31,729 nucleotides of DNA from a virus (taxonomy: Duplodnaviria > Caudoviricetes): positions 1 through 31,729 of the IMG/VR virus record IMGVR_UViG_3300032294_001672. The stretch is one strand, 5' to 3'. The notes under the pieces are model-generated. The model was not told where the DNA came from and searched no databases. It saw only the letters and a program-made list of their open reading frames with translations. This document shows, one piece after another, positions 6,996-31,330 of the stretch; the stretch's first letter is position 1, and each line of letters starts with the position of its first letter. A program made the translations under genes and the position numbers.

Positions 6996-8579
6996 TTATT
7001 CGACTTGTCGTCCGTCGCCCTGAGCATTTCGGCCTTCTCCAGAAACATCTGGGGAATTTGCAGATCTTTCAGAATCTCTAGATCTAGTTTTTCCTGCCTG
7101 TGCTCTTACCTCTGCCTGTTGCTGTGGCTTTAATTCAACAACCTTATCTCCACCATCAAGTGGGACAAGGCCCATTCTAATTCTTACCTCGTTAGGGGTA
7201 ATGACCTGCATCCTCAAATATCGCTCATCAATTTTTGACTGGGTATCTTCATCGGTTAGAGTAAGTTCATTAAATTTAAGAAGTAGGGCATCTGTCATCT
7301 CTTCAATAATTTTATTTAATTTCTTTTCTAAATTCATTTGAGCTGGACGACATACCTGCTCTCTAAATGTTTTATCTGCATCTCTTGCGACTGCAAGATT
7401 GACTCCCTCTGGGGTTCCAATTTTATTAATTGGAACACGATGAGATAATAGAATTTCATCTCTATTAGATTTACGATACACATTAAATGAAGACTCTTGA
7501 GTTCCTGCCTCAATTGGCTCCATCTTAAATTCAACCTTTGAATCTGGTGAATCTGGTGGAAGTGGTATATATAAAGATCTGTGATTCTTGCCTCTTAGAC
7601 CTACCTGAAAAAACTCCAACAATTTACGCTCAGACTCTGTTGATAATTTAGCACCCTTTACCGTAATAATGTATCTTGGAACCGCCTTATTTTCAAAGTA
7701 GTCAAGGTTATACTTTCCAGCAAACTCATTTCCAGCCATAGCATTTGAAGAGGCTACGATATCTGGAATTCCATAGTAGTTATTTGTTGGTGTATATTTC
7801 TTTAAATGAATAATTTCATTTGGCCTATCTAGTCCGCCTGCAATTGGATTCTCTGTTTCTTGATCTCCGAAGTTACGGAAGTATACAGCCTTTCCGTAGA
7901 GCAACTGAATAAAGCCATCACGAAGTCTACGAACACGCATTGTCTTTGCTGGGATATGCCCTATATATCCAATTCTTCCAGAAGACGTTCTGCCGATTTC
8001 AATATATCCATTTCCTGTTGCTTCAACATCTGTGTAAGCCTTGATAAGGGTTTCTGTAAATGTTTCTTCTTCGTTACACTGTTCTAGCCAATCATAAAGA
8101 TCCTGACGCAGTCTATTTAATTTTCTACGTGCACGATCTAAAGCTTTATCATCTGTAATATTATCAAATGCTTCTTGTGTTTTACGTGTTTCAATAAAGT
8201 CATGTCCAAGTCCAACAATATTTGAAACCTTAGCATTAATTGCTGAATAGTTGTATGGAGAAATTTCGTAAATAGTTGAAAGATAATCTAAATTGTATGG
8301 TGGCTCGATAAGATCGAACATGGCATAGCCAGTGATTGCTTGTGCCAATAAATTTTGTTGAGTTTCAGTTCCATCAATTCCTTGAAATCTTTTTTGCAAT
8401 TCCCTGTTCATCTTACGACGAAATGCAGGGCTTAGCCCTGATATCTTTGTCAGATCTTCTCCGCTTACCTTAAAAAGATCTGTGCTTGTTTGCTCTCTAG
8501 GAGTATTAAATTTCATCCAGTCAGCTACATTAGATATTGAAATATCTTTAGAGTCATCTTCATCTACATACTCAATCAT
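6996..8579 (-). CDS. portal protein
   Basis: 527 aa with portal motifs (TGNGYIEIGR, EIIHLKKYTPTNNYYGIP, YFENKAVP, RDEILLSHRVP, ITPNEVRIRMGLVPLDGGD); upstream of the protease. Confidence 0.9.
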   Translation of the reverse strand: MIEYVDEDDSKDISISNVADWMKFNTPREQTSTDLFKVSGEDLTKISGLSPAFRRKMNRELQKRFQGIDGTETQQNLLAQAITGYAMFDLIEPPYNLDYLSTIYEISPYNYSAINAKVSNIVGLGHDFIETRKTQEAFDNITDDKALDRARRKLNRLRQDLYDWLEQCNEEETFTETLIKAYTDVEATGNGYIEIGRTSSGRIGYIGHIPAKTMRVRRLRDGFIQLLYGKAVYFRNFGDQETENPIAGGLDRPNEIIHLKKYTPTNNYYGIPDIVASSNAMAGNEFAGKYNLDYFENKAVPRYIITVKGAKLSTESERKLLEFFQVGLRGKNHRSLYIPLPPDSPDSKVEFKMEPIEAGTQESSFNVYRKSNRDEILLSHRVPINKIGTPEGVNLAVARDADKTFREQVCRPAQMNLEKKLNKIIEEMTDALLLKFNELTLTDEDTQSKIDERYLRMQVITPNEVRIRMGLVPLDGGDKVVELKPQQQAEVRAQAGKTRSRDSERSANSPDVSGEGRNAQGDGRQVE

Positions 8580-8923
8580 TATTGTCCCTCTGCCCTTAAA
8601 TTTTTAATTTCGTCTTTATAGTTTCCAATATCCAAAGGATCTGGAACTAGTCCCCATTTAAGTCTTTGTTCTTGCTCTGCGTATTCTTCATCTGTAATTT
8701 TGCGTCTTGCTGAAAGAAATTTAGGCCCGCCTTCATATATGCCGAATGTGCGAACTTCTCTAGCCAAAGCATCGATTCTGGATTTATTGCCTTTTTTTGA
8801 CGTGATCGAAAGATAATTCCCATCTTCATCTCCAATCCATCTGCCGTCTGGCATTTCCCAAACATATATGCCTAGTGTTGACTCTTCCTGCAGAATCTTT
8901 GTATTTGCTTTACTAATATCCAT
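8579..8923 (-). CDS. hypothetical protein upstream of portal
   Basis: 114 aa, translationally coupled to the portal (stop/start overlap at 8579). Confidence 0.7.
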   Translation of the reverse strand: MDISKANTKILQEESTLGIYVWEMPDGRWIGDEDGNYLSITSKKGNKSRIDALAREVRTFGIYEGGPKFLSARRKITDEEYAEQEQRLKWGLVPDPLDIGNYKDEIKNLRAEGQ

Positions 8924-8986: not shown

Positions 8987-10732
8987 TTATATACTTTGTA
9001 GTACCACCCAGTCATTATTATAATACTTTGTGTCCAATTCTGTCACGGTTATGGCATTTTCCGTAATTGACTCAACAGGCTTTCCACAATAAAGCTCGAA
9101 GTGGGTTTCAACTTTTGATGCGGTTAGCTCAGAGTCATAAGTAGCAATATTCTTATAGAGGTTGCTTGGGCCACCTACGGACTCATAGTTAAATTTTAAT
9201 TCTCCAGTTACTGGGCTAGTAAATACGATTACAATGTGATGTGGCTCTTCTTGAACTAAATATGAACTAATGTTTGTTTGATTAGTTACATCTATATTGT
9301 TTACATATATCTTAGCTATATTGGCCTTAGAAACCACTCCAGAGCCGTTCCAGGCTAGCCTGGTAGCAGAAGGGTCGGAAGCATAGAAAAGGGTGTTAGA
9401 GGCCAACGTAAGCGGTGTAAAGAACATCTCTATAGACTTTACAGAAGTAGAAGCATTTAAACTAAAGCCTGATCCATTTTTAGCCCTAATTCCATTCATA
9501 TAATGTCTTGATAAAATTGGATAATTTAAAGAGCCTAAATAGTAATCGGTTGATGAGGTTATTTTGTCCCCAAAATTATCTGCATATATTGTTCTATCCG
9601 CATAAAATGTTATACAGAAGAATGATAGTTTTGGCAGATACTTACTTGCATCTGTAGTAGACATTGTAATTTTAATATATACATTACCGCTAGAGTTAAA
9701 TGAATCTTTAGTATATTGTGGTAGTGGCTGTCCATTTACACATGGAGAATATGCAATTCCGTCTACACTAGACTCTACAGTAATTCCTAAATCATTACGC
9801 CATTCAATTTTTGAAGTAGTTAGACCTATTTGTGAAGGCACAAAGAAATAGTCGTTTATAATAAATGTTTTGGCTTCGGCTGTATCTGTTTTATAAAAAG
9901 AAATATATCTATTGTTTGAATCATAGTAAGTGTTTTCGTCTACAAAATCTGACCAGGCCTTACTTGCTGGATAAGAGTAGTCCATTACAGCTTTAATATT
10001 TGCATCCGTTCCAGTAAACAATATTCCCTTATCTGGATAAACAACATTGATTGCAGAAGTGCAAATATTTCCGTCAACATAATGTTTTCTTATAGAGTCA
10101 GGTTGTAGTCCATATCTGTATACCGCTGGAGCATCTATTATAAATGTATCTCCAATAACTGATGTTGGGCCTACCTGTAATCCTAAAGTGGTGTTTGTAA
10201 ATTTAAAATTAGATAAAGCTTTAGAGTCGACGGCAAACGAATCTATGTATAGGGTTATGGCTCCAACTGAATAAACTCCTACAAGATGGATAGATTTTTT
10301 GCTATATGTAACGCAGTATCTGATTGATTCTGTATCAGACACTTTAAATACGATATCTCCATTTTCCCAGAATAAGCCTATATCATTTGTTGGGTCTGCA
10401 AATATTGGAGTTTCTGAAGAAGATTCAATCGATGGATGTATCCATGCTTCTATTGTAAAGTCATTGTCTGAAGTATATTTTGTTGCAAATCCCGCTCCTA
10501 CATTTGCCCCATAATAATCTTTTGTTACTGGTAAAGTTATATATGCTGTATTTGTAATACGGGTTCCAGAGACTCCGCCAGAAACTAAAGGAAGTATATT
10601 TGATACAGGAGATCCTACATAGGTGGCATTATTTCCGCATCCAGAAATATCTGCAGCTGTTGCACCAGAAGACTCATCCAATGGCCAGAAGCCTATGGGG
10701 TAATCTTTAATAACTTTCAGCTGATATGTCAT
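8987..10732 (-). CDS. LamG/concanavalin A-like domain virion protein
   Basis: PIGFWPLDESSGATAADISG..NNATY, DFTIEAWI, HLVGVY...ITLYID are LamG-like jelly-roll signatures. A second degenerate copy near the C terminus (HHIVIVF). Confidence 0.7.
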   Translation of the reverse strand: MTYQLKVIKDYPIGFWPLDESSGATAADISGCGNNATYVGSPVSNILPLVSGGVSGTRITNTAYITLPVTKDYYGANVGAGFATKYTSDNDFTIEAWIHPSIESSSETPIFADPTNDIGLFWENGDIVFKVSDTESIRYCVTYSKKSIHLVGVYSVGAITLYIDSFAVDSKALSNFKFTNTTLGLQVGPTSVIGDTFIIDAPAVYRYGLQPDSIRKHYVDGNICTSAINVVYPDKGILFTGTDANIKAVMDYSYPASKAWSDFVDENTYYDSNNRYISFYKTDTAEAKTFIINDYFFVPSQIGLTTSKIEWRNDLGITVESSVDGIAYSPCVNGQPLPQYTKDSFNSSGNVYIKITMSTTDASKYLPKLSFFCITFYADRTIYADNFGDKITSSTDYYLGSLNYPILSRHYMNGIRAKNGSGFSLNASTSVKSIEMFFTPLTLASNTLFYASDPSATRLAWNGSGVVSKANIAKIYVNNIDVTNQTNISSYLVQEEPHHIVIVFTSPVTGELKFNYESVGGPSNLYKNIATYDSELTASKVETHFELYCGKPVESITENAITVTELDTKYYNNDWVVLQSI

Positions 10733-10753
10733 AATTATATTATATACTAGATA

Positions 10754-11350
10754 TTACCTTTTATAAAAGAATATGGGGATCAAATACTTGGTCCCAGATA
10801 TTGTTTTTGCAGGCTCGTGAACTATATTCTTTGACTCAAAAACAACAACGCTTCCAGCCTCTGGCTTAATAGATATATTGAAATCTGGAAAGTTTATTTC
10901 TCCGCCTTCATAATCATCATTTAAATAAACAACCATTGAAACTGTTAATGGGTCCTGATCATCATCAAATGAGTCTACGTGGGCACCCATGTATGAGCCA
11001 ACATCGTATTTTTTAATATAAAAGGTTGTAGGTAAATATCCTGACTCAATACCTATATCCTTGCAAAAAGACTCCTCGATAGATAGAACCTTATATGCCA
11101 ACATAGAGCAAAGCTTTGAGTTTATTTTATCTCCGACTGTTTGATTTTGAAAAATATTAAGTCGACATTCTTTTTCTTTACCAAAGATTTCATTAATTCC
11201 AGAAGAAGACCTCCAGTCTTTCCACGGACCTATTTGCGGAATATATGATGCCATCAAGTCGGCCTCTTCTAGTTCTTTCAAAAATAGGTCGGGATCCTCA
11301 ATAACATTTTTATAGTAATGTATTTTAGGATGTAGAACTTCCTTAATCAT
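10754..11350 (-). CDS. prolyl 4-hydroxylase-like 2OG-Fe(II) oxygenase
   Basis: HVD...YLNDDYEGGEINF...KPEAGSVVVF...H...GTKY. Confidence 0.9.
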   Translation of the reverse strand: MIKEVLHPKIHYYKNVIEDPDLFLKELEEADLMASYIPQIGPWKDWRSSSGINEIFGKEKECRLNIFQNQTVGDKINSKLCSMLAYKVLSIEESFCKDIGIESGYLPTTFYIKKYDVGSYMGAHVDSFDDDQDPLTVSMVVYLNDDYEGGEINFPDFNISIKPEAGSVVVFESKNIVHEPAKTISGTKYLIPIFFYKR

Positions 11351-12050
11351 ATTTTGCCTTATATTGTAAAGGAGTTCCCTCTTCCTTAGCTTTAGCCCAT
11401 TCCTTATAGGTTTCTTCTTGCTCAGCTCTTGTTTGCTTTAGCTCAGCTTCCCATTCTGCAACTTGCTCTGGTGTATATACGGCATCAGCATTATCCCAGA
11501 AAGATCCAACTGTGTATCTTTCTGCATTTTTAACAGTTGAAACTTCGTGCTCATTACCATATCCACCCTTAAAGAATGCTAATCTTCCTGGTTTTGGCTT
11601 AATAACTATATCGTGATGCTTAAAGTTTAAGTCTCCACCCTCAAAGTTATCATTTAAATATAAAAATCCTGCATACTTACTTTTATAAAATGCGGATGGG
11701 CTTCCGTCTTCATGTGTATTATCTGAATGAAAACTTGCAAAAGCTCCTACTACCCATTTTTGTGCGTGGTAGCTGACCTCAGACAATTCTCTTCCAAAAC
11801 ACTCTTCTCCTGCTTTTTTAATTTTTTCTTTTAATTGTGAAAAATAATCTCTTGGCAATCCAAACAGTAATAGATTATCGTCGTGTGGCCAATACCCCAT
11901 TGCAAAAGAACCATAAAATGAAATTTGATTCCATTCTAAATATCCTGCATTTACAATTCCGTCCAGGTATCCAATAATTGCACTGCATTCTTCTGGCGGT
12001 ATTAAGTTATCTATAACAAATACGTCATCCTTTAGCGTTACAATTTCCAT
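11343..12050 (-). CDS. prolyl 4-hydroxylase-like 2OG-Fe(II) oxygenase
   Basis: HSD...YLNDNFEGGDLNF...KPKPGRLAFF...HEV...ERY. Confidence 0.9.
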   Translation of the reverse strand: MEIVTLKDDVFVIDNLIPPEECSAIIGYLDGIVNAGYLEWNQISFYGSFAMGYWPHDDNLLLFGLPRDYFSQLKEKIKKAGEECFGRELSEVSYHAQKWVVGAFASFHSDNTHEDGSPSAFYKSKYAGFLYLNDNFEGGDLNFKHHDIVIKPKPGRLAFFKGGYGNEHEVSTVKNAERYTVGSFWDNADAVYTPEQVAEWEAELKQTRAEQEETYKEWAKAKEEGTPLQYKAKYD

Positions 12051-12906
12051 AGCCAGATTCCTCTTCTCTTTCCAATATTTCTAGTGCATATTGTATATCT
12101 TGCTCAGACGGCATAACTCTTACACCATCTTTGAAAACTATATTTCCTCCATAAACATCTTCAGCCATTCTTCTTCTTTCCATTTGAGCCCACTTAACTG
12201 CCCCGTACTTTGCTTGATTGGCTAGCCATTCTTCAGATCCTTCATATGGGTAAAACATAAAGTTTCTAATTAAATATTTATTTCCCTGTGTTGCTGTTCT
12301 TACCCCATGATAATAAGGCTCTCCTGATGGAAATACCATAATATCTCCTGCCTCTGGTTTATATGCTGGAACAAATTCTCCGTCTACATAAAATTCAATT
12401 TCTCCACCCTCATAGTCATCATTTATATAAACAGTACAGGTTATAAAAAATTGATTGCCAGGCATATCTTTTTCTGTTTGCTTAAAATCAGTATGAAATT
12501 GCATGGTTAGATTATTTTTTAAGGTGTCTACGTTTGTGTGGTATTTACAAAAAGATGAAGATCCCAGTTCACAATCTTTTGGAAGCTCTACATTATACTT
12601 TTCAATATAATGATCTAGTGCTACATTGTATGCATCAAAAACTGTTTCCGCAGCCCAGTATTCGTTATCAAATGTTTCACTTTTTCCAAGGTGGTCTTTG
12701 ACAGCATCTTTATGTTTTGTACTTGAGTATAATCCAAATGCGCTCCACTGATACCATGGATTAAAATAATGCTCTCCAGAGTCTTTATCCTCTTCTGTTA
12801 AACTTTCTGTTGATTTTATAATTTCAAAAATCTTTTTGTGATCTGGTAACAACCCTTTGTATACTTCAATTTTAGGGTATAGTGTTTTTGATACTATATC
12901 ACTCAT
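12025..12906 (-). CDS. prolyl 4-hydroxylase-like 2OG-Fe(II) oxygenase
   Basis: HTD...YINDDYEGGEIEF...KPEAGDIMVFPS...HGV...GNKY. Confidence 0.9.
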   Translation of the reverse strand: MSDIVSKTLYPKIEVYKGLLPDHKKIFEIIKSTESLTEEDKDSGEHYFNPWYQWSAFGLYSSTKHKDAVKDHLGKSETFDNEYWAAETVFDAYNVALDHYIEKYNVELPKDCELGSSSFCKYHTNVDTLKNNLTMQFHTDFKQTEKDMPGNQFFITCTVYINDDYEGGEIEFYVDGEFVPAYKPEAGDIMVFPSGEPYYHGVRTATQGNKYLIRNFMFYPYEGSEEWLANQAKYGAVKWAQMERRRMAEDVYGGNIVFKDGVRVMPSEQDIQYALEILEREEESGYGNCNAKG

Positions 12907-13583
12907 TTTGAATCCTTGTCTAATTTAGATATTGTCCAAAACCAAGGAGATGTATATCTGGTTCCTGATGTAATTACATCAACTCCGTGAATATAGTTTA
13001 AGTCCCCAGGGAAAAAATAAGCTGCTTTTCTTTTAGGTCTTATTGCTACATCTTGTTTTGGAAAATGCAGTCTTCCGCCTTCATAATCTTCGTTTAAATA
13101 AAATATTGTTCCGATGTCATACCACGGAAAGTTTCCAGGTTGTCCAGCATCTGGGCCTTCGTGCAACTCTTTATCTGCATGTGGCCACTGCATAGATCCT
13201 ACTGGCCATCTAACCAAGCACGGCCCTGTTGGGTAAACCTCTACATTAAAATGCTTTTCAATAACTGGCTTTAGTCTTTGGATAATTTCCTCTAGCTTTA
13301 TTGCTACCTCAGGGTTTCCTTTGTCCAACGAAGCTCTTGTGGCAACACGATCTCTCCACACATCGTGCTGATAAATTACTGTACCGTTTTCATTAACTAC
13401 ATCTTGTCCGCCATCCCAAATGTTGTTATTTTTTATATAATTTAATAGATACTCACACTCTTCTTCTGTAAGAAAATCTTCTACCTCAACAATATTTTCT
13501 TTACCTGCGCCAAAATACCCTGATGGGGTAATTGAGGTTCTGTGTGTTCTTAAATCAGATTCGTTAACGTGCATTTTTTTCAC
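12903..13583 (-). CDS. prolyl 4-hydroxylase-like 2OG-Fe(II) oxygenase
   Basis: DFLTEEEC; HAD...YLNEDYEGGRLHF...HGV...GTRY. Confidence 0.9.
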   Translation of the reverse strand: MKKMHVNESDLRTHRTSITPSGYFGAGKENIVEVEDFLTEEECEYLLNYIKNNNIWDGGQDVVNENGTVIYQHDVWRDRVATRASLDKGNPEVAIKLEEIIQRLKPVIEKHFNVEVYPTGPCLVRWPVGSMQWPHADKELHEGPDAGQPGNFPWYDIGTIFYLNEDYEGGRLHFPKQDVAIRPKRKAAYFFPGDLNYIHGVDVITSGTRYTSPWFWTISKLDKDSK

Positions 13584-13591
13584 CTATCATC

Positions 13592-14320
13592 TTATTCATA
13601 TTTCTTGGGGACCCAAGTTTTTTGTTTATAAACTCCAAATTTTTCATTTCCAAACTCGTCTTGCCTATAAATTTTTGTATGGCTTTCATGCTTTTCAACC
13701 ATTTCTTCTTCTGTAAAAAAGTTAACTTCAGAAGTCCATTCTTCCCTTTTGTAAGGAAAAATTTGAGCATAAGGAGTTCCCTTTTTAATAATACCCTGAA
13801 AGGTATTTTTTATAAAAAACGGCATAAGGCCTGGTGGTCCATACCTATCACTGTCAATTATACCGCTTGTAGTCAAAAAAGGCAGCTCGAAATGATTTAT
13901 TGGATGTGTTACTAAAGCACTATATCCCTCTGGCAAGGTGAATCCCCAGTTAGGGTACCAATGATATGATTGATCGTAGTATCCTTCTGGATAATAAAAT
14001 TCGCCCATGTGTGGCCTACCATCGCAAAATCCCTCAAAACCCTTTTCTGGTTGAATATAAGTAATTTGATCATATCTAGAAACAGCCACATCGCATGGGG
14101 TTGTCAACATATATCCAGATGAAAAAACATCAAGTAGCGCTGGGCAAGATTTAAATCCAGGACCCTTTTTGTTTCTTGGTGGAAAATCTATAACCTTTTT
14201 ATCTTTATCCGTCCAATATTTGCTAGCATTTAAAAACCAGTCTGGAGTAGTTTTTTTTGCAGGCAAGGGAGCAGTATCTTTGTCATTATAAATTCTATTT
14301 GAATTGAAAACAATTTTCAT
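13592..14320 (-). CDS. DUF6065-related conserved phage protein (possible dUTPase-like beta fold)
   Basis: PAKK..PDWF, KSCPA..D...SGY, W...LPEGYSAL..HP.N...LPF...SGIIDSD, IKKGTPYAQIFP; same motif order as the neighbouring gene. Confidence 0.5.
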   Translation of the reverse strand: MKIVFNSNRIYNDKDTAPLPAKKTTPDWFLNASKYWTDKDKKVIDFPPRNKKGPGFKSCPALLDVFSSGYMLTTPCDVAVSRYDQITYIQPEKGFEGFCDGRPHMGEFYYPEGYYDQSYHWYPNWGFTLPEGYSALVTHPINHFELPFLTTSGIIDSDRYGPPGLMPFFIKNTFQGIIKKGTPYAQIFPYKREEWTSEVNFFTEEEMVEKHESHTKIYRQDEFGNEKFGVYKQKTWVPKKYE

Positions 14321-15033
14321 TTTGTTAAATCTTTAACTCCAAGCTTAATCGACTTAACTTCGTGCTCTCCTAAACGATTTCCCATATAATCTACAGCGTC
14401 TCTATAGTAATCAGTCCATGTTCCCTCAGCACTTGCTTTTTCTGCTGCAGCCATAGCGCCCTCCATTGTAAGTGGGACATCTCTTTTAATTCGTGGTGCA
14501 TGTATTCCATGATGTATATCAATTGTAGAATTATTTAAATCTGTAAGTGATATAGGCATTATTGCAATAAATGGCTCATTTGCTTTTATTGTAATCGGAA
14601 CAAATGGTCTCGTAATTTTCCAAGCAACGGGCAGTGGACCTTCGAAAAAGGATGTGCTCAATATACTTGTGACTGCACTTGCTCCATCAGTAAAACTATT
14701 TGGAACTGGAAAAGAAAGAAGACTATAATTTTTATCTGTAACAAACTGAAGATTGGTTTTAAAATTAATTGTTGCATGCCCTCTTCCAGTTTCACAATAC
14801 TTTTCCCCTTGAAGAACCTTAACGTTGTCTGGATAAGTACTAATAATTCCATCCCACATAAATGTTATATCTTCTGGAAAAGACAATCCCCAGCCTAATT
14901 GATTTGTTAAAGTAAGCGGAAAACATCTATAAGCATGCTTATGTGTAGTTTCATCCATCCAGTTTCTTTTTGCAGAAAGGGGTGTTATGTCCGCACAAAT
15001 ATCTGAAGCTTTATAGGCAGTTAAATTAATCAA
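14317..15033 (-). CDS. DUF6065 family protein
   Basis: RNWMDET..KHAYRCFPL...NQLGW matches my recollection of the DUF6065 N-terminal motif (R.WM...AYRC.PL..AN..GW). Confidence 0.65.
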   Translation of the reverse strand: MINLTAYKASDICADITPLSAKRNWMDETTHKHAYRCFPLTLTNQLGWGLSFPEDITFMWDGIISTYPDNVKVLQGEKYCETGRGHATINFKTNLQFVTDKNYSLLSFPVPNSFTDGASAVTSILSTSFFEGPLPVAWKITRPFVPITIKANEPFIAIMPISLTDLNNSTIDIHHGIHAPRIKRDVPLTMEGAMAAAEKASAEGTWTDYYRDAVDYMGNRLGEHEVKSIKLGVKDLTK

Positions 15034-15781
15034 CTTGTTTTTCTTCCATTAGTTGTTCTGCTGGCTTAAACTTTTTACCCTCCGTAATATGATTATATTC
15101 ATAGCTAGCCTCAATTTCTCTATATAGTGGAGTATGCGGTGCTTCTTGATAATCTAACATTGTGACAACTGCATATTTTGTTCCTGATGTTACTGGCATT
15201 GCAGCATGTGAGTATATAAAAGAAGATGGGAATAGATAAAGGTCGCCAGCTCTTGGTTTTACTTTAACACCAAGTTTATCAAAAAATAGTTCTCCACCCT
15301 CATAGTCATCATTTAAATATCCAACTGAGGATAGAACACAAACGTAAGAGTATCCATGATCTGAATGGACATTAAAATGTTGATTTTTGCCATACTTAAT
15401 AAAATTAAAAGCTTCCCAATAATTTAATGGAGGGATTTGGAACATATTCATATAATCATAAACTGCTGAAAGTTGAGCGGTTTTTGACTCTCTCCAAATA
15501 CTACGTAACTCAAATTCTTCTTCTGTAAAATCTTCTGGCTCAACGTGTGTGCCGTTTCCAAGCATTAAAGATCCACCTACGTTTTCTTTAATCTTAAAAT
15601 CCCAAGCATCTCTATAATCTTTATTTAGCGTATCATATCCAGTTTGAGCAAGGTTCCAGTGTTTCTTGCCCTGTGTTTTAGAAAGAACAGCTTCTAGTCT
15701 TGTGTCTAAATTATATTCTTTTTTAAATACATCTCTGTATACAATAATGCCTGGATAAATTGTTTCTGCATTTGGTAGCAT
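15026..15781 (-). CDS. prolyl 4-hydroxylase-like 2OG-Fe(II) oxygenase
   Basis: KYG..QHF..HSD...YLNDDYEGGELFF...FPSSFIYSH...GTKY. Confidence 0.9.
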   Translation of the reverse strand: MLPNAETIYPGIIVYRDVFKKEYNLDTRLEAVLSKTQGKKHWNLAQTGYDTLNKDYRDAWDFKIKENVGGSLMLGNGTHVEPEDFTEEEFELRSIWRESKTAQLSAVYDYMNMFQIPPLNYWEAFNFIKYGKNQHFNVHSDHGYSYVCVLSSVGYLNDDYEGGELFFDKLGVKVKPRAGDLYLFPSSFIYSHAAMPVTSGTKYAVVTMLDYQEAPHTPLYREIEASYEYNHITEGKKFKPAEQLMEEKQVD

Positions 15782-16408
15782 TTAGTTTGACTCCTTTTTA
15801 TGTTTTTTGTCAATATAAGCATCATATTCTTTTGAATGAGCATCATCGTTATAATCTAACATGGTGACAAAAGAATACTTGGTGCCAGAATTTACTGGAA
15901 GCGCTATGTGAGAATAAATAAACGAAGATGGAAATATAATTAAGTCTCCAGCTTTAGGTTCTATGTGCAAATCAAATTTAGGAAAAAATAGTCCTCCGCC
16001 AGTATAGTTATCATTAGGATATCCAACTAAAGAAACTGCAGACTTATAAGACCAACCATCATCTGAATGCTCTTTAAAGTATTGTCCCTTTCCATACTTT
16101 ACAACATTTGTCCATTCCCAAAAATCCATCCTGATGCTGTACATTTCACAGTAATCAAGAACTGCTTCTTTTTGACAATTATAAATATCATTATATATAT
16201 CTATATATTCTGGCAAATTATACATTTTTAGATCTTGGCAATCTCTATAATCTAGATCTTGATCCTCTAAACATACAGTAGCGGTATTCCACTTTAAAAC
16301 ATTAGCGTTTACTTTATCTTCAATTCTTTGAATTAAATTTAAATCTTCTGGAAAAGAATTTGGATATTTCCATATACCAGGATACAGTTGTTGTTTATTA
16401 TATATCAT
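15782..16408 (-). CDS. prolyl 4-hydroxylase-like 2OG-Fe(II) oxygenase
   Basis: KYG..QYF..HSD...YPNDNYTGGGLFF...FPSSFIYSH...GTKY; close paralogue of 15026-15781. Confidence 0.9.
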   Translation of the reverse strand: MIYNKQQLYPGIWKYPNSFPEDLNLIQRIEDKVNANVLKWNTATVCLEDQDLDYRDCQDLKMYNLPEYIDIYNDIYNCQKEAVLDYCEMYSIRMDFWEWTNVVKYGKGQYFKEHSDDGWSYKSAVSLVGYPNDNYTGGGLFFPKFDLHIEPKAGDLIIFPSSFIYSHIALPVNSGTKYSFVTMLDYNDDAHSKEYDAYIDKKHKKESN

Positions 16409-16414
16409 AAATAC

Positions 16415-16443
16415 ATAATATCATATTTAAAAAACCTAGTCAA
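16415..16443 (-). promoter_or_regulatory. promoter for oxygenase operon, probably leaderless
   Basis: TTGACT-17 nt-TATTAT with extended TG, then 6 nt to ATG 16408; no SD. Confidence 0.7.
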
Positions 16444-17989
16444 TAGTATCTTGTAAGGTTTTACATCCATTATAGGCTAGCATTGACTCTGCAATTAATA
16501 GCCCCCAAGGTTCTCTATAAATTAAATATACCTTGGTATCTTTTTCAATAATTTCAACTTTTTCAACGGTTATATATTCTAATGAATTGTCTTTATAAGA
16601 TACAAACTGATCGCCTATCTTTAATCTAGCGCTTGTAATAAACTTATACTTATCATTTCTTTTTATTAAAATTTGCTCCTGTGTTGATAAGTCATACTTT
16701 TCTTCATTATTTATTCTAACGATTGATTCGTAATCCTGCTCATCAATGGCAAAGACAGTGGATTCAGTATATGAAACATTTTCCAAAGAGTCGGAACTCC
16801 ATTCGTCTACAAGAGATATACATTTCTTAGAAACTGAACCAATTGTGCAGTCTGGATCGCCTTCTGGAATATCATCAAACACTGCAGTTATAAGAACGTC
16901 GCCGTTAACAATTTCTTTAGCTTTCTTATATCCGTCTTTTGTTAAAACATTAGTGTTTTCTGGAATACAAAATCCTGGAGGGCCAAAGAATCTAGGTGGT
17001 GAGAAGAATCCTGGAGGTCCAAAGAATGCTGGTGGGGCGAAGAAACCTGGAGGTCCAAAAAATGATGGTGGTGCAAAGAATCTAGGTGGGGTAAAGAATA
17101 ATGGTGGCACGAAGAATCTAGGTGGGCTAAAGAATAGCGGTGGGCTAAAGAATAATGGTGGGCTAAAGAATAGTGGCGGAACGAAGAATAGCGGTGGGCT
17201 AAAGAATAGCGGTGGGCTAAAGAATAGCGGTGGAGAGAAGAATAGTGGTGGAGAGAAGAATAGCGGTGGTGCGAAGAATAGCGGTGGTGCGAAGAATAGT
17301 GGTGGTGCAAAGAACCCTGGAGGAGAGAAGAATGTTGTAACCTGATTAGAAGTTCTTGGAGTTGAAGAACCATTTTCATTTACAGCAACTACGCTATAAG
17401 ACTGAGTTGTTCCCATTGTTTCTCTAATATTAATAGTTGTTGTTGTTCCATTAACTTCATATGGAGATGCTAGTCCTCCTGGCTGAGCAGAAGTATCTGA
17501 AGAAGTAATTATATACTTAGTTAAAGGTTTTCCTCCATTAACTGAAGCAGACCAAGTTACTGTATCCTGCCCTCTTAAATCAGTTTGGCTGTGTCCTGGA
17601 CCAGTTGTATTAGATGTTGAGGTTACTGTTGATGGTGCGGCAGGAACTGTTGTAAACAAAACAGAAGAGGATGGAAGTGATGATTCTGATTGTCCATTTG
17701 CATTTGTTGCCTTTACTGTAGCAGTACCAGTAGCTCCTTGAGGAATTCCAATTACTGTAATAGGAGAAGATGTACCAATTTCTGAAAATGATCCCTGTGC
17801 TCCACAATTTACAACAACTGTATAGCTAATAATTGGTAACTGATTTGGTGGATATTCAAATGATACTATTGCTGCTGCATTATTAAATGGTCGATTTGTT
17901 CCAACATCAGTTAAAGTTACATTGATCGGTGGTACTGGTAATTCAAAATCACCAGATAGTTGTGCTCTTCTACCAACTTTTTTTCCCAT
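16436..17989 (-). CDS. FN3-FN3 / (FFxPPx)20 repeat / Hint-domain protein
   Basis: Residues ~19-219 form two fibronectin III-like domains (VKATNANGQS, VTWSASVNGGKPLTKYII, YSVVAVNENGSS). Residues 220-339 are hexapeptide repeats. Residues 341-507 are a Hint-like domain (CIPENTNVLTKDG...LKIGD...VY...LAYN). Confidence 0.85.
   Translation of the reverse strand: MGKKVGRRAQLSGDFELPVPPINVTLTDVGTNRPFNNAAAIVSFEYPPNQLPIISYTVVVNCGAQGSFSEIGTSSPITVIGIPQGATGTATVKATNANGQSESSLPSSSVLFTTVPAAPSTVTSTSNTTGPGHSQTDLRGQDTVTWSASVNGGKPLTKYIITSSDTSAQPGGLASPYEVNGTTTTINIRETMGTTQSYSVVAVNENGSSTPRTSNQVTTFFSPPGFFAPPLFFAPPLFFAPPLFFSPPLFFSPPLFFSPPLFFSPPLFFVPPLFFSPPLFFSPPLFFSPPRFFVPPLFFTPPRFFAPPSFFGPPGFFAPPAFFGPPGFFSPPRFFGPPGFCIPENTNVLTKDGYKKAKEIVNGDVLITAVFDDIPEGDPDCTIGSVSKKCISLVDEWSSDSLENVSYTESTVFAIDEQDYESIVRINNEEKYDLSTQEQILIKRNDKYKFITSARLKIGDQFVSYKDNSLEYITVEKVEIIEKDTKVYLIYREPWGLLIAESMLAYNGCKTLQDTID
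16973..17332 (-). repeat. 20 x 18-bp coding tandem repeat (FFxPPx)
   Basis: Twenty consecutive 18-nt units counted in the DNA; Phe-Phe and Pro-Pro invariant, with synonymous codon variation. Confidence 0.95.
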
Positions 17990-18003: not shown

Positions 18004-18504
18004 TTAAGCTGTTAAATCACCAAATAGAAGCCAGGTATTGGCATCTCGTTTTAAAATTGTTGCCATAGACCACTGAAATCTTAGCTTTCGTCCTGGAGTA
18101 AAATTTAAAACTACTCCATCTCCAGCCACAACGGTTGTTTGACCTGTTCCAGATTGCAAAATATCTATAGTAGTTCCAATTGGAAAGTTTACAACAGAAT
18201 CTGGTGGTATTGTAAGATTGTTTGCGACCTGCATTCTAATATCAATAATTGTATCTCTTTCGTTTAAATTACTAAGAGTATACGGGAAATACTTAACATT
18301 AATTGGAGTCAAAGACTGTACGGCTATTTTACTTTGAACTCCATCTGTAAATCTTAGAGTACCGCCTGAAACATCTAAAGTTCCCTTTAGGTCAACTTGT
18401 CCAGCTAAAGTAGTATTTCCTTGAAATCCAGCACGATTATTTACTGACAAGGACTTGACTTGCAAGTCCTCGTCAGTATTAAATTTACCCTTATTCAGAG
18501 ACAT
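18004..18504 (-). CDS. tail-fibre tip / adaptor-like protein
   Basis: C-terminal LTIPPDSVVNFPIGTTIDILQSGTGQTTVVAG.GV...LRFQWSMATILKR.ANTWLLFGDL is a domain I recognise from the ends of aquatic phage fibre proteins. Confidence 0.55.
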   Translation of the reverse strand: MSLNKGKFNTDEDLQVKSLSVNNRAGFQGNTTLAGQVDLKGTLDVSGGTLRFTDGVQSKIAVQSLTPINVKYFPYTLSNLNERDTIIDIRMQVANNLTIPPDSVVNFPIGTTIDILQSGTGQTTVVAGDGVVLNFTPGRKLRFQWSMATILKRDANTWLLFGDLTA

Positions 18505-21534: not shown

Positions 21535-24500
21535 CTAATCTCCTAATTGTATATCCACTGCTCTAAATGGATAAATTGATTTTTGAGCTGTTTGACTCTC
21601 TGGACCCGACATATATCTTGCCTCAAATTTAGATCCTACTGGAACGGGCTCCCCGAACTGTACAAATCCATCATTATCGAAGAAATATCCATCGGATGGA
21701 ATCAAGCTTAGCCAATGTTTTTCTTGGTTTCCCAATATCTGTAGTATACCATTAATCGTTATCAAAAGCTTGTAAGGATTTTGAGGTATAAATACATCGC
21801 CGTCATATGTTAACTGGAATCTTGACGTAGAACCGTCAAAAAAGACTGAAATGTCGTCCAGCGGGAATATGTCGGATCCAACTGATGAGGCAATCTGGTT
21901 TGCCAAATATGCCTTATTTACTGCATGCTCGTCATCTATAGGCGCTGCTACAGATATTGGAGTGTTTCCAAAATCAACCCCGTTGACGATAACATTGTTT
22001 AATGTTTTATTTGTAAGGGTTGTTGTATTTGTTTCAGTAACAATTCTATTAGATGAATTTACGTCTAATCCTAGTCCTGGAATTCTAAGGCTTGTTATTG
22101 ATGAATTTCCTAATACAATTTGGTTGTTGGTATTTACGGCAGTGGTTGCTGCGTTATATCCAATAATAATATTATTTGATCCAGTAGTTATTGTAGCTCC
22201 AGCTGAAGTTCCAATAGTAACGTTTTGATTACCGCTAAGTAATTGTGATAAAGAGTTTGCTCCAATAGCTACGTTATCTGAACCGCTTTGAACTGAGCTT
22301 AATGCATCAATTCCTAGTGCAGAGTTGTTTGCACCAGAAGTTAAGCCACCTAGTACAAACTCTCCAACACCAGTATTGTTATTGAAGCTATCAACTAAAC
22401 CGTATACTAAACCAGGAAGGTCAGGAGTTGCGCTTGGTATTTGATAAGTGCCTCCAAGAGCTACTGTGGTATCACTTGTACCTATTGACATAATAATACT
22501 TGAATTTGTCAATTTATTGTTTGCAATAGATCCTGCAAGCATTGCATTTGTAACTGTATTATTTGGAAGTATTACAGTTCCTGTAAATGTAGGTGATGCA
22601 AGATTTGCCTTTAGTCCTAATGCTGTTGATGTTGCAGTAGAAACTGGCTTATTTGCATCTGATGTGTTATCAACGTTATCAAGGCCAACCATTGACTTTG
22701 TAATTCCACTTACAGTTCCTGTAAATGTTGGATTTGCAATTGGAGCATATGTTGTTGCTGCTGTTGCGGAAGCAAGCTTAAGGTCAAGGGCCGTCTGAGT
22801 TGCTGTCGAAATAGGCTTTGCTGCGTCTGATGTATTGTCAACATTTGCAAGACCCACATCTGATTTTGTAATGCCAGTTGGTGTATTAATAACTGGGCTT
22901 GTTAAAGTTTTATTTGTTAATGTTTGAGCGGTAGTAAGGTCTGCTGTAGTTGAAGTATTAATACTAAATGAATTACCAACTAAATTTAAACCATTACCTG
23001 CTAAAAATGTACCAGCTCCTGAGAACTGTGTAAAACTAATTGAATCTGTTCCAATGGTTGCTGGTTTTAGAGTTTGAACCCATCCTGTATTTGCATAAGT
23101 GTTTCCAGATGAAACAAATATGAAGTCTCCGCTGTCTACCTCTGCTGCAGTATCGAAGTCTGATGCACGAAGTGGTCCACCCGATGCCTGAATAACATAA
23201 ATACCATTTTGAGATTGAGTTGTTTGTCCATTGACAAGCACTCTCATTCCTTCTGTAAGCGTTACTCCATCAATAGTGTCTCCAGCTTCTAAAGCTGTTG
23301 CTATATCTATATTTGTCGCAACGTAAGCATTTGCTGATGCGTGAACATGTAACCCTTCAGTAAGTGCATCAACATATTCTTTTGTTGTTGCATCTGTAGG
23401 ATTTGAAGGCGACTTAAGTCCAGTAACCTTAAAGTTACCCATTCGAATTTCGCCTGTCATATCTCCGCCACTCAATGACAACTTACCGTCTAATGCTGTT
23501 TGAGTAGCAGTTGAAACTGGTTTATTTGCGTCTGATGTATTGTCAACATTTGCAAGACCCACATCTGCTTTAACTATTCCAGTTGGAGTATTGATAATTG
23601 GAGAAGTCAAAGTTTTGTTTGTAAGGGTTTGAATGCCAGAATCTGTAATTACAGTTGAATCTATATCAAGAAACAGTGTGTTTGTTTCATCACTATATGA
23701 TTCGTTAAGTCCTGTTCTACCAACAATTAAGTTTGCAGCAATATCCTCTACACGCTCTTGATTTAGTGTTACTGCGCCAGATGTAACCGTGAAATCTGTT
23801 GCGTTAAAGCTTGCAACACCCTTATTGGTTGAAGTTGCATCTTCTGCTGATACTGTAACTGTATTATTTGTTACAGCTACGTCAATTCCTTCTCCACCAG
23901 CAACAGTTAGTGCGTCAGTTAATAGATTAACTGTATCTGTTCCAGTATCTCCTGCTATCGAAAGGTTTGTTGCTACGTCTGCTTCGCTTGCAGCAGTTAG
24001 ACGACCTTGTGCATCTACAGTAAATGTTGGGATTTTTGTGGTTGATCCATATGAACCAGCGGTAACCGCCGTATTGTCAAGATCTATCGTCAGAATGTTT
24101 GATGAATCATTGTATGTTTTTGTAAGCGCAACTCCTGCAATTAGAGCATCGTTTACAGCATCTTGAGCTGCCTCTGAAATAACTGCATCTGTTACAGATA
24201 ATGTTATTGTATTTGCATTATCGTCATATACCTTAGTAATACCATTTCCAGCAACAATTGCTGTGTTTACGGCATCCTGTGAAAGCTCTGTAATATCAGC
24301 AGAATTAGCTTTAAGGTCGAGGGCTGCCTGAGTTGCAGTAGATACTGGCTTGTTAGCATCAGAAGTATTGTCTACATTTCCAAGTCCTACATCCGCCTTA
24401 ACAATTCCTGTTGGTGTAGTTATTGATGGAGATGTAAGAGTTTTATTTGTTAAAGTTTGTGCACCATCATCGGTAACTAGTTTTGCTGTATTTGCAATTC

Positions 24501-25050
24501 CGTGCACATTTGTTGTATCTGCTTCGTGATTAGAAAGGTTTGTTGCAACTGTTGTAAAAAATGTTGGGTCGTCATTAACTGCAGCTGCTAACTCATTTAA
24601 TGTATCTAGTAGTCCAGGGGCTCCGTCTACTAAATTACTTACTGCTGTAGAAATATCTGATGTTAATGCAATTGTTCCAGAATTATTTGGAATAGTAATT
24701 GTTCTATTTGCTGTTGGCTCTGCAGCGGTTAATGTTGTTGTATATGTATGGGCATCATCATTCCACAAAACAATTGAGTTCTCTGGGATAATAAGATCGC
24801 CATTAGAATCTAATTCGGCTGGGCCTCCAGGAGTTCCCTGGTCTGCTACTAGAATATAGTCTCCAAGGCTGTTAGTTAGTCCAGAAGGAGTTACGTTAGC
24901 ATAGCTAGTTGTAGCCGTCCATGTAGATCCATTACCTATTTTAAACTTGAGGGTATCTGTTTCAATACCAATTTCACCTGGTCTTAATACTGGATTTGCT
25001 GAAACCCAATTTGCTGCGGTATCTCTTCGTAATTGAATTCTAATTGCCAC
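21535..25050 (-). CDS. long tail fibre protein (Mtd-N-like N terminus)
   Basis: N-terminal IQLRRDTAANW...NPVL..GEIGIETDTLKFKIGNG; four DVGL.NVDNTSD..KP.STA repeats; TLTNKTL repeats; IDGVTL..G.RVLV..QT..SQNGIYV fibre domain; N.AIG YadA-head-like repeats. Start placed at GTG 25050 (GGGGT SD); ATG 25056 is an alternative. Confidence 0.8.
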   Translation of the reverse strand: MAIRIQLRRDTAANWVSANPVLRPGEIGIETDTLKFKIGNGSTWTATTSYANVTPSGLTNSLGDYILVADQGTPGGPAELDSNGDLIIPENSIVLWNDDAHTYTTTLTAAEPTANRTITIPNNSGTIALTSDISTAVSNLVDGAPGLLDTLNELAAAVNDDPTFFTTVATNLSNHEADTTNVHGIANTAKLVTDDGAQTLTNKTLTSPSITTPTGIVKADVGLGNVDNTSDANKPVSTATQAALDLKANSADITELSQDAVNTAIVAGNGITKVYDDNANTITLSVTDAVISEAAQDAVNDALIAGVALTKTYNDSSNILTIDLDNTAVTAGSYGSTTKIPTFTVDAQGRLTAASEADVATNLSIAGDTGTDTVNLLTDALTVAGGEGIDVAVTNNTVTVSAEDATSTNKGVASFNATDFTVTSGAVTLNQERVEDIAANLIVGRTGLNESYSDETNTLFLDIDSTVITDSGIQTLTNKTLTSPIINTPTGIVKADVGLANVDNTSDANKPVSTATQTALDGKLSLSGGDMTGEIRMGNFKVTGLKSPSNPTDATTKEYVDALTEGLHVHASANAYVATNIDIATALEAGDTIDGVTLTEGMRVLVNGQTTQSQNGIYVIQASGGPLRASDFDTAAEVDSGDFIFVSSGNTYANTGWVQTLKPATIGTDSISFTQFSGAGTFLAGNGLNLVGNSFSINTSTTADLTTAQTLTNKTLTSPVINTPTGITKSDVGLANVDNTSDAAKPISTATQTALDLKLASATAATTYAPIANPTFTGTVSGITKSMVGLDNVDNTSDANKPVSTATSTALGLKANLASPTFTGTVILPNNTVTNAMLAGSIANNKLTNSSIIMSIGTSDTTVALGGTYQIPSATPDLPGLVYGLVDSFNNNTGVGEFVLGGLTSGANNSALGIDALSSVQSGSDNVAIGANSLSQLLSGNQNVTIGTSAGATITTGSNNIIIGYNAATTAVNTNNQIVLGNSSITSLRIPGLGLDVNSSNRIVTETNTTTLTNKTLNNVIVNGVDFGNTPISVAAPIDDEHAVNKAYLANQIASSVGSDIFPLDDISVFFDGSTSRFQLTYDGDVFIPQNPYKLLITINGILQILGNQEKHWLSLIPSDGYFFDNDGFVQFGEPVPVGSKFEARYMSGPESQTAQKSIYPFRAVDIQLGD
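22608..24460 (-). repeat. four dispersed fibre shaft repeats (K.DVGL.NVDNTSDA.KP.STAT..AL.LK)
   Basis: Copies at approximately 22608-22700, 22778-22927, 23485-23630 and 24310-24460. Confidence 0.85.
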
Positions 25051-25465
25051 TTGCATTACCCCCGTCAATATAAGTATCTATAAAACTTGAACTAGCAGAA
25101 CCTGAATTTGCAAAAATTCTAGAATCATCAACATACTCGCCATAAGTTACCTCTTCAACAATACCTGTTGACTGGCTATGTTTGTGCTCAAGAATTTCTT
25201 TTGGTCCTGCAACATCATACCAAATCTGTCCATTATATCCCTTAAATGTATTTTCTGATGTATCAAAATACAACTCTCCTAGTTCAGGACTAGCTGGCGG
25301 TTCTGATAAAACTGGAACACCTGAAGATACGTTACCCCATTCTGTACCAGAATAAATTCTTAACTTACCAGTTGAACTGTTATAATAAATAGCGCCAACT
25401 GCTGCAACAGAAGGGTCTGTAGCAAGTGCTGGTGGTGCTATGGGAGTTAAGAATTTTTTTGTCAT
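25040..25465 (-). CDS. small fibre-associated structural protein
   Basis: Two P..P..G.(I/L)Y(Y/F)....(G/N)....Y.G..W repeats typical of fibre shafts; ends IDGGNA. Confidence 0.6.
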   Translation of the reverse strand: MTKKFLTPIAPPALATDPSVAAVGAIYYNSSTGKLRIYSGTEWGNVSSGVPVLSEPPASPELGELYFDTSENTFKGYNGQIWYDVAGPKEILEHKHSQSTGIVEEVTYGEYVDDSRIFANSGSASSSFIDTYIDGGNASGN

Positions 25466-30294: not shown

Positions 30295-31278
30295 TTATGA
30301 TATTTTTTTAAATACTTCTTCAAATGCTTTATTGGTCAACTGATCCCAATTATATTCTTTATGTATTTCAGTTGACTGAGCATAATAATATCCAGAATAC
30401 GCTTTAAAGTTATCTGCTGCATCTTCTATTAAACTAACTAAATGATTGCTGTCTGGTTTATAAACTTTTCCAGGATGCATAGCCTGCCACGGTGAATCTA
30501 TAAGTGTAGAGTTTAACTTTAGGGGACCTAAGTATTTTTTATAATCTGCCCATTCATGTGTTGATATAACTGGCATGCCTGTTGCAAGAGCTTGAAATGG
30601 AATAAAGCCAAAACCCTCTCCGTATGTGGGGTATATCATAACATCGTGCTGGTGATACATTTCTACCAACTCATTGTCCTCTAGGTCTCTTTCATCTAGC
30701 TTAATATTGCTATACATTTCGTGGGGAAGTCCAATAATGCTTCCCTCTCTGTTATATACTCTTAAAGCACTAGACTTATGGGCCTTTATAGTTAATGTAT
30801 AGTTAGGGTTATTACCAAATGCTTTTATAAATGCATTTACTGTATCTTGTCCGCCTTTTCTTTCTGCTGGTTCTCCAACATGCAAAAACTTTATAACATT
30901 TGTATATTCACGTTTTTTAGGAGACCATATTGGATCTATTCCATGAGGGAAAACATTAGATACTTTAAATCCATTATTTTCATATACATCCTTACACCAT
31001 TGAGATGTTGTCCAAAATTCGTCACAGTAGTTTATATTTTCTCTCCATGACTCTGGAATAGATGTTGACTCCCAGGGTGTATAACCAATCTGATATTGAT
31101 TTCTATGTAACTTATAATTTGTAGGTTGTGAAAAATTAATTTGTAATTTAGCTTTAGGGTTTTGATAAGTTAATCTATGACCCATTTTAGACAAAGATTC
31201 TGCTACCTTAAATCCAGCATGACCATACCCATTCTTGGTTGTTAAGTTAGATCTAGGCGTAGAATATGATATTTCCAT
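30295..31278 (-). CDS. glycosyltransferase family 4 (GT-B)
   Basis: HGID, RKGG, YPTYGEGFGFIPFQALATGMPVIST motif. Start placed at ATG 31278 (MEISYS) rather than TTG 31317. Confidence 0.88.
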   Translation of the reverse strand: MEISYSTPRSNLTTKNGYGHAGFKVAESLSKMGHRLTYQNPKAKLQINFSQPTNYKLHRNQYQIGYTPWESTSIPESWRENINYCDEFWTTSQWCKDVYENNGFKVSNVFPHGIDPIWSPKKREYTNVIKFLHVGEPAERKGGQDTVNAFIKAFGNNPNYTLTIKAHKSSALRVYNREGSIIGLPHEMYSNIKLDERDLEDNELVEMYHQHDVMIYPTYGEGFGFIPFQALATGMPVISTHEWADYKKYLGPLKLNSTLIDSPWQAMHPGKVYKPDSNHLVSLIEDAADNFKAYSGYYYAQSTEIHKEYNWDQLTNKAFEEVFKKIS

Positions 31279-31300
31279 GTAATCTTTCTGGTTGACCAGC

Positions 31301-31330
31301 TTGACACCTACTGTCAAGTAATGTTATGAT
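31301..31330 (+). promoter_or_regulatory. sigma70-type promoter for transglycosylase gene
   Basis: TTGACA-18 nt-TATGAT with extended TG; AAAGGAGG SD downstream at 31348-31355. Confidence 0.7.

Follow-up and report, generated by a model that had tools for sequence, protein, structure and literature searches.

A phage cassette predicted to hydroxylate its own Phe-Pro-Pro repeat protein

Among the auxiliary genes of aquatic viruses, those for prolyl 4-hydroxylase (P4H)-like enzymes rank with the commonest; in the excerpts of PMC9301287 their use is called cryptic. The question of what such enzymes act on is raised by the 31,729-nt IMG/VR virus record IMGVR_UViG_3300032294_001672 (the window, by which we mean the whole 31.7-kb stretch), in which coding lies nearly all on the minus strand. 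Here a gene for a protein with 20 tandem FFxPPx units is followed by genes for six 2-oxoglutarate (2OG)-Fe(II) oxygenases, a DUF6065 protein and a homologue of the latter (block at 10754-17989). The reading that we favour, with some confidence, is that of a swappable phage cassette, in which hydroxylation of the repeat's Pro-Pro pairs is the likely work of the six oxygenases and the modified protein is predicted to dock on the end of a fibre, forming an extensin-like tip. The cassette names a concrete, synthesisable candidate substrate for phage P4H-like enzymes.

The repeat protein and the oxygenase array

The repeat protein (517 aa; 16436-17989, minus strand, as are all features of the block) consists of a basic N-terminal strand, two fibronectin type III (FN3) domains (approximately aa 20-219; 17333-17932), the 20 FFxPPx units that form the candidate substrate (aa 220-339; 16973-17332), a single Phe and a non-canonical Hint domain starting at Cys341 (16469-16969). 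Intergenic gaps were computed with mechanical start codons. The units hold 40 of the 61 prolines in the protein and are followed by F340 and C341, so that an earlier note on this DNA, which had counted 40 prolines in 20 tandem units ending one residue short of the Hint Cys, was exact. Chance or a DNA-level repeat as the origin of the run was ruled out, since 20,000 shuffles of the protein never produced more than one unit in tandem and codons differ synonymously from unit to unit. An ORF on the opposite strand (16746-17345) was discarded as a shadow of the repeat gene. Three of the Pro-Pro pairs occur as GPPG; the repeat is a hexamer and lacks the Gly-X-Y pattern of collagen and phage collagens. 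AlphaFold2, run on a 50-sequence alignment, gave two confident FN3 domains (predicted local distance difference test, pLDDT, mostly 80-96; Foldseek top matches to tandem FN3, E 3e-10), a repeat without a confident monomer fold (pLDDT 40-55) and a confident all-beta C-terminal domain.

Eight tightly coupled genes follow, as had been claimed; the gaps from the repeat gene to ox1 and on through the block are 27, 0, -8, -4, 8, -4, -26 and -8 nt. All six oxygenases matched PF13640, one of them just below the curated cut-off. The HxD...H iron triad was intact in each, in agreement with the earlier note, and invariant in the alignments of all five clades into which the oxygenases sort (ox1/2, ox3, ox4, ox5 and ox6, mostly single copy per array), where a basic 2OG-binding residue accompanies it. 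The P4H-type motif YxNDDYxGG had been ascribed to all six enzymes; it is exact in three, while the others carry the variants YPNDNYTGG, YLNEDYEGG and YLNDNFEGG.

Three of the enzymes are P4H-like: ox1 (15782-16408), its paralogue ox2 (15026-15781), whose best PDB match is the B. anthracis P4H, and ox6 (10754-11350). The ox1/2 clade profile matched the B. anthracis and chlorovirus (5c5t) P4Hs at E 4e-8, and the ox6 profile matched the same two best, at E 1e-10 and 4e-10. The profiles of ox3 (12903-13583) and ox5 (11343-12050) instead found human prolyl 3-hydroxylase 1 (P3H1; 8k0e) as best match (E 9e-11 and 6e-8). The 2OG-binding residue tracks this split, being Arg in ox3 and ox5, aligned with that of P3H1, and Lys in ox1/2, aligned with that of P4H; in the ox6 clade it is Lys in 24 of 30 sequences and Arg in six. 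In ox4 (12025-12906), which is absent from some arrays, Lys and Arg are both invariant, leaving its type ambiguous, and there are weak PDB matches only (9blq, 8k0e). A protein prolyl hydroxylase is thus the nearest solved relative for five of the six (ox1, ox2, ox3, ox5 and ox6), and the array divides by sequence into prolyl-3-hydroxylase (P3H)-like (Arg) and P4H-like (Lys) clades. Both ox2 and ox3 are core genes in the two phage groups described below.

Collagen P3H acts on Gly-Pro-4Hyp (4Hyp, 4-hydroxyproline) to give Gly-3Hyp-4Hyp, according to the consulted part of PMC2696763, and a Pro-Pro substrate for both enzyme types is therefore coherent. The P4H-like ox1, ox2 and ox6 and the P3H-like ox3 and ox5 would oxidise the two prolines of a pair, as in the collagen product, and ox4 may act on another residue. 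Collagen P3H1 and P4H resemble the window enzymes as their nearest solved relatives, and the repeat supplies Pro-Pro pairs; unlike the collagen system, the matches span the catalytic core only, TPR, PDI and CRTAP partners are missing, and the repeat cannot form a collagen triple helix.

Between ox2 and ox3 lie dufA (14317-15033) and dufB (13592-14320). The earlier note had described two DUF6065-like proteins; only dufA matches DUF6065 (PF19541), and dufB is phrog_7084, homologous to dufA by profile (95.5%). The dufA model has a dUTPase fold (Foldseek 6ky8, E 3e-4; VIA Z 10.6, root-mean-square deviation 2.9, 124 aligned), whereas the fold of dufB follows solely from its homology to dufA, its own profile having no match in the PDB, dUTPases included. 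Catalytic motif 3 of trimeric dUTPases carries an Asp. This position is Ser or Thr in 22 of 23 dufA sequences, and an active dUTPase was rejected for lack of that Asp; dufB keeps a GIIDxD motif, with Asp in 20 of 21. While dufA is a core gene in both phage groups, dufB is an accessory, absent from many arrays and also found where there is no repeat. We suggest, tentatively, that the DUF6065 protein is a non-catalytic partner that would hold enzyme or substrate. In the ESM Atlas, DUF6065 found its own family only, and all leads for Hint scored below 0.9.

Co-occurrence in relatives and in a second phage group

A search of IMG/VR with a DNA pattern of three repeat units gave 125 stretches in the part scanned, with approximately 340 estimated overall. 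At least two core oxygenases were present within 8 kb in 66 of the 80 repeat loci with flanks; by contig ranges, nine of the other 14 are on contigs where the array is farther off or cut, and five are on contigs that stop less than 3 kb downstream. In the reverse direction, using the best 80 of 597 DUF6065-anchored loci, a Phe/Tyr-Pro-Pro repeat was found at all 25 loci with 10 kb upstream. None of 22 array-less loci had the repeat. The co-occurrence of repeat and oxygenase array, for which the earlier note had proposed a search in phage metagenomes, is supported by these counts. With the 114-aa gene of the phage backbone as a neutral anchor (best 80 of 598; 75 with a usable portal, 27 of those with at least 9.3 kb upstream), repeat and array occurred together in nine of the 27, neither in 18, and one alone in none. 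Searching 30 array-less records over their whole length revealed no repeat in any (controls 4/4 positive); PF13640 genes were absent from 24 of these records and numbered one or two in six. In these records the island is occupied by Gly-rich proteins, other fibres or Trp-halogenase cassettes.

A portal tree of 61 dereplicated rows, from a sample enriched for carriers, had 43 with both traits (including L051, with five oxygenases and dufB and no dufA) and 18 with neither. Repeat and array each change six times on it, and independent pairs were concordant in 6/6 cases (p 0.031).

The same genes were found in a second, unrelated group of large phages, where short repeat proteins (approximately 130-240 aa) accompany orthologues of ox3, ox2 and DUF6065 in a different gene order. 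One 205-kb record of this group encodes a tail sheath, a baseplate wedge and a portal of another family (the approximately 205-kb myovirus group), and the window portal had no match in five second-group records. Among 80 second-group loci, not dereplicated, 33 had 8 kb upstream, and the repeat lay within this distance in 29 of them, often as (F/Y)FPP tetramers; in the other four it was 8.5-12 kb off on the same contig, past unrelated fibre genes. Pairing across up to 12 kb loosens the objection that the genes are merely physically linked. Five repeat-less myovirus contigs have under 4.2 kb of sequence ahead of dufA and are uninformative, as is L534. A T4-type capsid search in the second group gave no ring anywhere and was likewise uninformative. 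The repeat gene moves together with the oxygenases and DUF6065 inside a variable island of fibre genes, and the system is real and widespread.

Neither the repeat protein nor dufA was found among 50,697 records of cultured phages, in which the repeat protein gave one weak Hint match. The GTDB search matched 34 stretches, two of which have the cassette on phage-like contigs; the remaining matches, considered as cellular repeat carriers, appeared to be shadow frames or unrelated repeats. The full cassette was observed on contigs of two metagenome-assembled genomes labelled Bacteroidia/Bacteroidetes (L244, L250). These contigs are probably binned phage DNA and hence provide no host assignment.

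The fate of the repeat protein and competing explanations

Directly upstream of the repeat gene, just outside the block as the earlier note had drawn it, is a gene for a stand-alone fibre-end domain (166 aa; 18004-18504, minus strand) ending in W..GDL.A, whose PHROG matches are C-terminal regions of minor tail and virion proteins. Of 137 distinct repeat genes from both phage groups, 114 have a gene ending in W..GD(L/I) directly in front of them; among the 23 that do not are four with GDM variants, three bacterial shadow ORFs and eight long proteins encoded by second copies. Elsewhere this domain forms the C-terminus of long fibres, and it is also found in array-less islands. The gp37-gp38 pair of T-even phages offers an analogue for docking on a fibre end. 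By this analogy the 18004-18504 product is likely the docking site of the repeat protein, whose basic N-terminus and FN3 pair would bind it, and the hydroxylated aromatic/proline tail may serve adhesion or receptor binding.

The flanks of the repeat vary among relatives while F/Y-PP is kept. Before the repeat there are FN3 pairs, long Ig-like proteins or short domains, the largest repeat-fused Ig/FN3 virion-type proteins reaching approximately 890 aa; after it come Hint, an S74 endosialidase-type chaperone (L129), a Cys-rich tail or just 2-9 residues. In L118, L137, L140, L178 and L418 a second, long Ig-like protein (approximately 680-890 aa) shares its terminal repeat, and the tail or Hint after it, with the copy next to the array, which suggests that the C-terminal module was copied between genes.

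That a Hint domain closes the repeat, as the earlier note had it, holds for the fold, by family profile and all-beta model, and fails for the canonical block-B His. The window domain alone has no Pfam match; the profile of 42 family members matches the bacterial intein-like (BIL) domain 2lwy (E 4e-8) and inteins. Position 1 is Cys in 38 of the 42 and Ser in four. Block B of a canonical Hint has the histidine of TxxH, for which the window has SxxE; His is present in eight of the 42, with Gln or Glu in 34. The terminal Asn is kept in 33 and lost in nine. A splicing intein would end in His-Asn followed by Cys, Ser or Thr and a C-extein, whereas the window has YN-GC plus eight residues, and the residue after Asn is Gly, Lys, Ala or absent in most relatives. 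These features therefore fit N-terminal release over splicing, if the Hint is active at all. It would be a removable C-terminal cap that cuts at Cys341, leaving the repeat as the mature chain end. Like BIL Hint domains and S74 tail-spike chaperones, it sits at the end of a structural protein, with an N-terminal Cys, and is interchangeable with S74 in one relative; the Gln/Glu substitution and, in the nine family members noted, the lost Asn set this family apart from BIL Hint.

Several observations weigh against the proposed hydroxylation of a fibre-tip repeat. Matches in the PDB are distant, at E 1e-8 to 1e-10 and confined to the catalytic core, and PiuC-type hydroxylases score too; substrate class and regiochemistry are therefore not fixed by sequence. 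The array-less records are fragments, 9-88% complete. Adjacent genes in an island exchanged as a block co-segregate regardless of function, and with a carrier-enriched sample the portal-tree agreement alone is no proof of function. The expectation that repeat sequence would covary with oxygenase subfamily had to be abandoned: in 79 arrays the raw associations were strong (Arg at position 6 with two ox1/2 copies, Fisher p 5e-10; Gly at position 3 with dufB, p 4e-8), but on a 72-row cassette tree they held in 1/5 and 2/6 independent pairs. Self-cleavage of the Hint is unsure because the usual block-B His is missing. In addition, dufB occurs without the repeat in Trp-halogenase cassettes and near nucleotide enzymes in haloviruses, and bacteria have two-gene operons of DUF6065 and an ox3-like enzyme (L455:203-1746; L540-L549), none with a repeat gene seen nearby.

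These points bear most on the possibility of linkage without a substrate relation, in which host proteins, small molecules or nucleotides are the oxygenase substrates and the repeat protein, left unmodified, is an adhesin that merely shares the island. The repeat-less bacterial operons, the failed covariation, the one or two oxygenases present in 6/30 repeat-less contigs, and the haloviruses in which dufB neighbours ribonucleotide reductase or thymidylate synthase would all agree with it, as would the metabolite synthesis proposed for the Syn9 array in the consulted part of Iyer et al. 2010 (PMC2938197). We nevertheless regard it as unlikely, given that the pairing survives in the unrelated myovirus group, where the genes are ordered differently and variable fibre genes can intervene over as much as 12 kb, that all else in the island turns over, and that the nearest solved relatives are protein prolyl hydroxylases and not AlkB or TET. 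The earlier claim that the repeat is the dedicated partner of the enzymes accordingly keeps its support from co-occurrence, portal-tree co-segregation, recurrence in an unrelated group and prolyl-hydroxylase relatives, and is weakened by the bacterial DUF6065-oxygenase pairs that lack a repeat.

The earlier note had left open whether the repeat is displayed at a fibre tip or released as peptides. Release would make the cassette resemble a pathway for ribosomally synthesised and post-translationally modified peptides (RiPPs), with the repeat as a multi-core precursor that is hydroxylated and cut to short Phe-Pro peptides against the host or competing microbes. The repeat does look multi-core and adjoins tailoring-type enzymes, there are short forms of approximately 130-145 aa without FN3 or Hint (L071, L160), the conserved basic N-terminus could be a leader, and some relatives add sulfotransferase-like and Asp/Asn hydroxylase-like accessory genes. 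Yet the block's Pfam and PHROG matches include no protease, cyclase or exporter (host proteases could stand in), no cleavage residue is conserved between units, and fusion to large virion-type proteins, together with the fibre-end gene in front of 114/137 repeat genes, points elsewhere; we consider peptide release improbable. Equally doubtful to us is an intracellular role, in which the hydroxylated repeat is not part of the virion and would, for instance, scaffold assembly or divert host proteins that bind proline by acting as a decoy. The PHROG tail-fibre match of the repeat protein is weak and comes through FN3, and no cultured phage carries the protein, which would suit this idea; the constant place behind the fibre-end gene in both phage groups and the S74 chaperone, typical of tail spikes and fibres, in place of Hint in L129 speak against it. 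Between the two fates, tip display is favoured by the virion-type fusions, the S74 swap and the fibre-end neighbours.

Glycosylation of the repeat, which had also been raised, found no support in the window: the block has no glycosyltransferase, and the GT4 gene at 30295-31317 is at a position where cassette-less Streptomyces phages likewise encode a glycosyltransferase. In one relative a homologue of the Skp1-type hydroxyproline GlcNAc-transferase (PF11397) lies inside the cassette (L410:8253-9260), and PF11397 is also present in the repeat-less L299. In L373 (847-2119), L381 and L393 a pair of sulfotransferase-like and Asp/Asn beta-hydroxylase-like genes lies between the repeat and the oxygenases.

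Related systems and the surroundings of the block

The cassette is best described as a predicted prolyl-hydroxylation system by which a virus would modify a repeat protein of its own; it is not a collagen, and in the features compared (a releasing protease or exporter, the splice-junction residues) it departs from RiPP pathways and inteins. The layout has partial precedents in print, at least in the consulted parts of the sources (Iyer et al. 2010, PMC2938197). The closest viral case is PBCV-1, whose P4H hydroxylates viral Pro-Ala-Pro-Lys repeats (Eriksson 1999, as related in part of the review PMC3634087). In both cases one virus has genes for a P4H-family enzyme and for Pro-rich repeat proteins, and the ox1/2 and ox6 profiles match the PBCV-1 structure (5c5t). 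PBCV-1 is an algal giant virus, whereas the present system belongs to a tailed bacteriophage and has six predicted enzymes including P3H-like ones, a Phe-rich repeat in the same operon, a Hint cap and DUF6065 partners.

The array of Synechococcus phage Syn9 comprises ten dioxygenases including a JmjC enzyme, two Trp halogenases and a conserved-Cys dUTPase-fold protein (Iyer et al. 2010, PMC2938197, in part). The window shares with it several distinct 2OG oxygenases and a dUTPase-fold Cys protein; by Pfam it lacks the Trp halogenases and the JmjC enzyme, and it has a co-segregating repeat protein, whereas for Syn9 the consulted part of that paper names no protein substrate and proposes metabolite synthesis. 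In the repeat-less L299 (1350-8173) and L349 (3205-7889) the same island has one to three copies of dufB within a Trp-halogenase cassette, a Syn9-like array in this phage group. The same part of Iyer et al. 2010 (PMC2938197) also predicts that bacterial beta-hydroxylase/sulfotransferase operons modify co-encoded collagen-like or tail-collar proteins. These operons likewise combine a repeat or fibre protein with hydroxylases, and some cassette relatives add genes of the Asp/Asn beta-hydroxylase-like and sulfotransferase-like types; the window differs in its P3H/P4H-like enzymes, the absence of Gly-X-Y and the phage virion context, and the bacterial proposal is itself a prediction. No description of the cassette was found in open-licence full text, subscription journals being outside this coverage, and no paper on DUF6065 was found there.

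DUF6065 is present in 18 of 201 genomes of the class containing one Novosphingobium genome. The 16 bacterial loci comprise two DUF6065-JmjC fusions, one pair of DUF6065 and an ox3-like enzyme, and one locus near poly-Pro RTX proteins; in the remaining 12, by a crude ORF pick, there was neither an oxygenase pairing nor a Pro-rich protein. Both fusions (L441:6267-9812, L444:3446-9024) adjoin secreted (Pro-Thr)n surface proteins, one of the two genomes having served as the search entry point and so not being randomly drawn. The L441 neighbour, a Slam-associated TbpB-like protein, additionally matches the S74 chaperone. More two-gene operons of DUF6065 and an ox3-like enzyme occur in metagenomes, and no repeat gene was seen with them. 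Partnership with oxygenases is thus a general trait of DUF6065; the company that it keeps in bacteria supports a shared job, yet shows that the pair can exist without this repeat. In a phage-like metagenome locus (L567:303-11027) a distant DUF6065 and oxygenases lie between two proteins with Tyr/Pro-rich, non-FFxPP tails, and in the haloarchaeal Hafunaviridae dufB homologues (L422:5857-6690, L423:5848-6738) are located between adhesin or fibre genes and ribonucleotide reductase or thymidylate synthase.

A wider proposal, which we put forward only tentatively and hold to be possible rather than probable, is that at least two unrelated tailed-phage groups build a 3- and 4-hydroxylated extensin-like Phe-Pro fibre-tip polymer with their own enzymes and a self-removing Hint cap, and that DUF6065 is a pseudo-dUTPase, substrate-presenting subunit for hydroxylases of Pro-rich surface proteins from phages to bacteria. 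If the favoured reading of the cassette is right, a class of "metabolic" phage genes would move to virion maturation, collagen-type 3- and 4-hydroxylation would occur in bacteriophages, DUF6065 would gain a role, and small single-chain P3H-like enzymes would be on offer for making hydroxylated peptides.

By Pfam and PHROG matches the gene order of the window is glycosyltransferase, ribonucleotide reductase, long fibre genes, the block, a LamG-domain gene, the 114-aa gene, portal, prohead protease, capsid and head-tail genes. The block had been placed inside the virion region between fibre genes and portal, which is correct, except that two conserved backbone genes, the LamG-domain gene (8987-10732) and the 114-aa gene (8579-8923), separate it from the portal. 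Matches to the LamG gene were restricted to Streptomyces phages (127 records), and we infer an actinobacterial host. Two of these phages, both Stanwilliamsviridae, have the same order from reductase through LamG and the 114-aa gene to the portal, but their reductase and LamG genes are separated by no more than an endolysin or one other gene. Because they share the order and have this interval near-empty, the fibres, repeat gene and oxygenases form an island in a Stanwilliamsviridae-like backbone. Among the fibre genes, 21535-25068 encodes a fibre of 1177 aa whose N-terminal domain is Mtd_N and which contains a VDNTSDAxKP-type repeat in three copies; the fibre differs widely in length between relatives.

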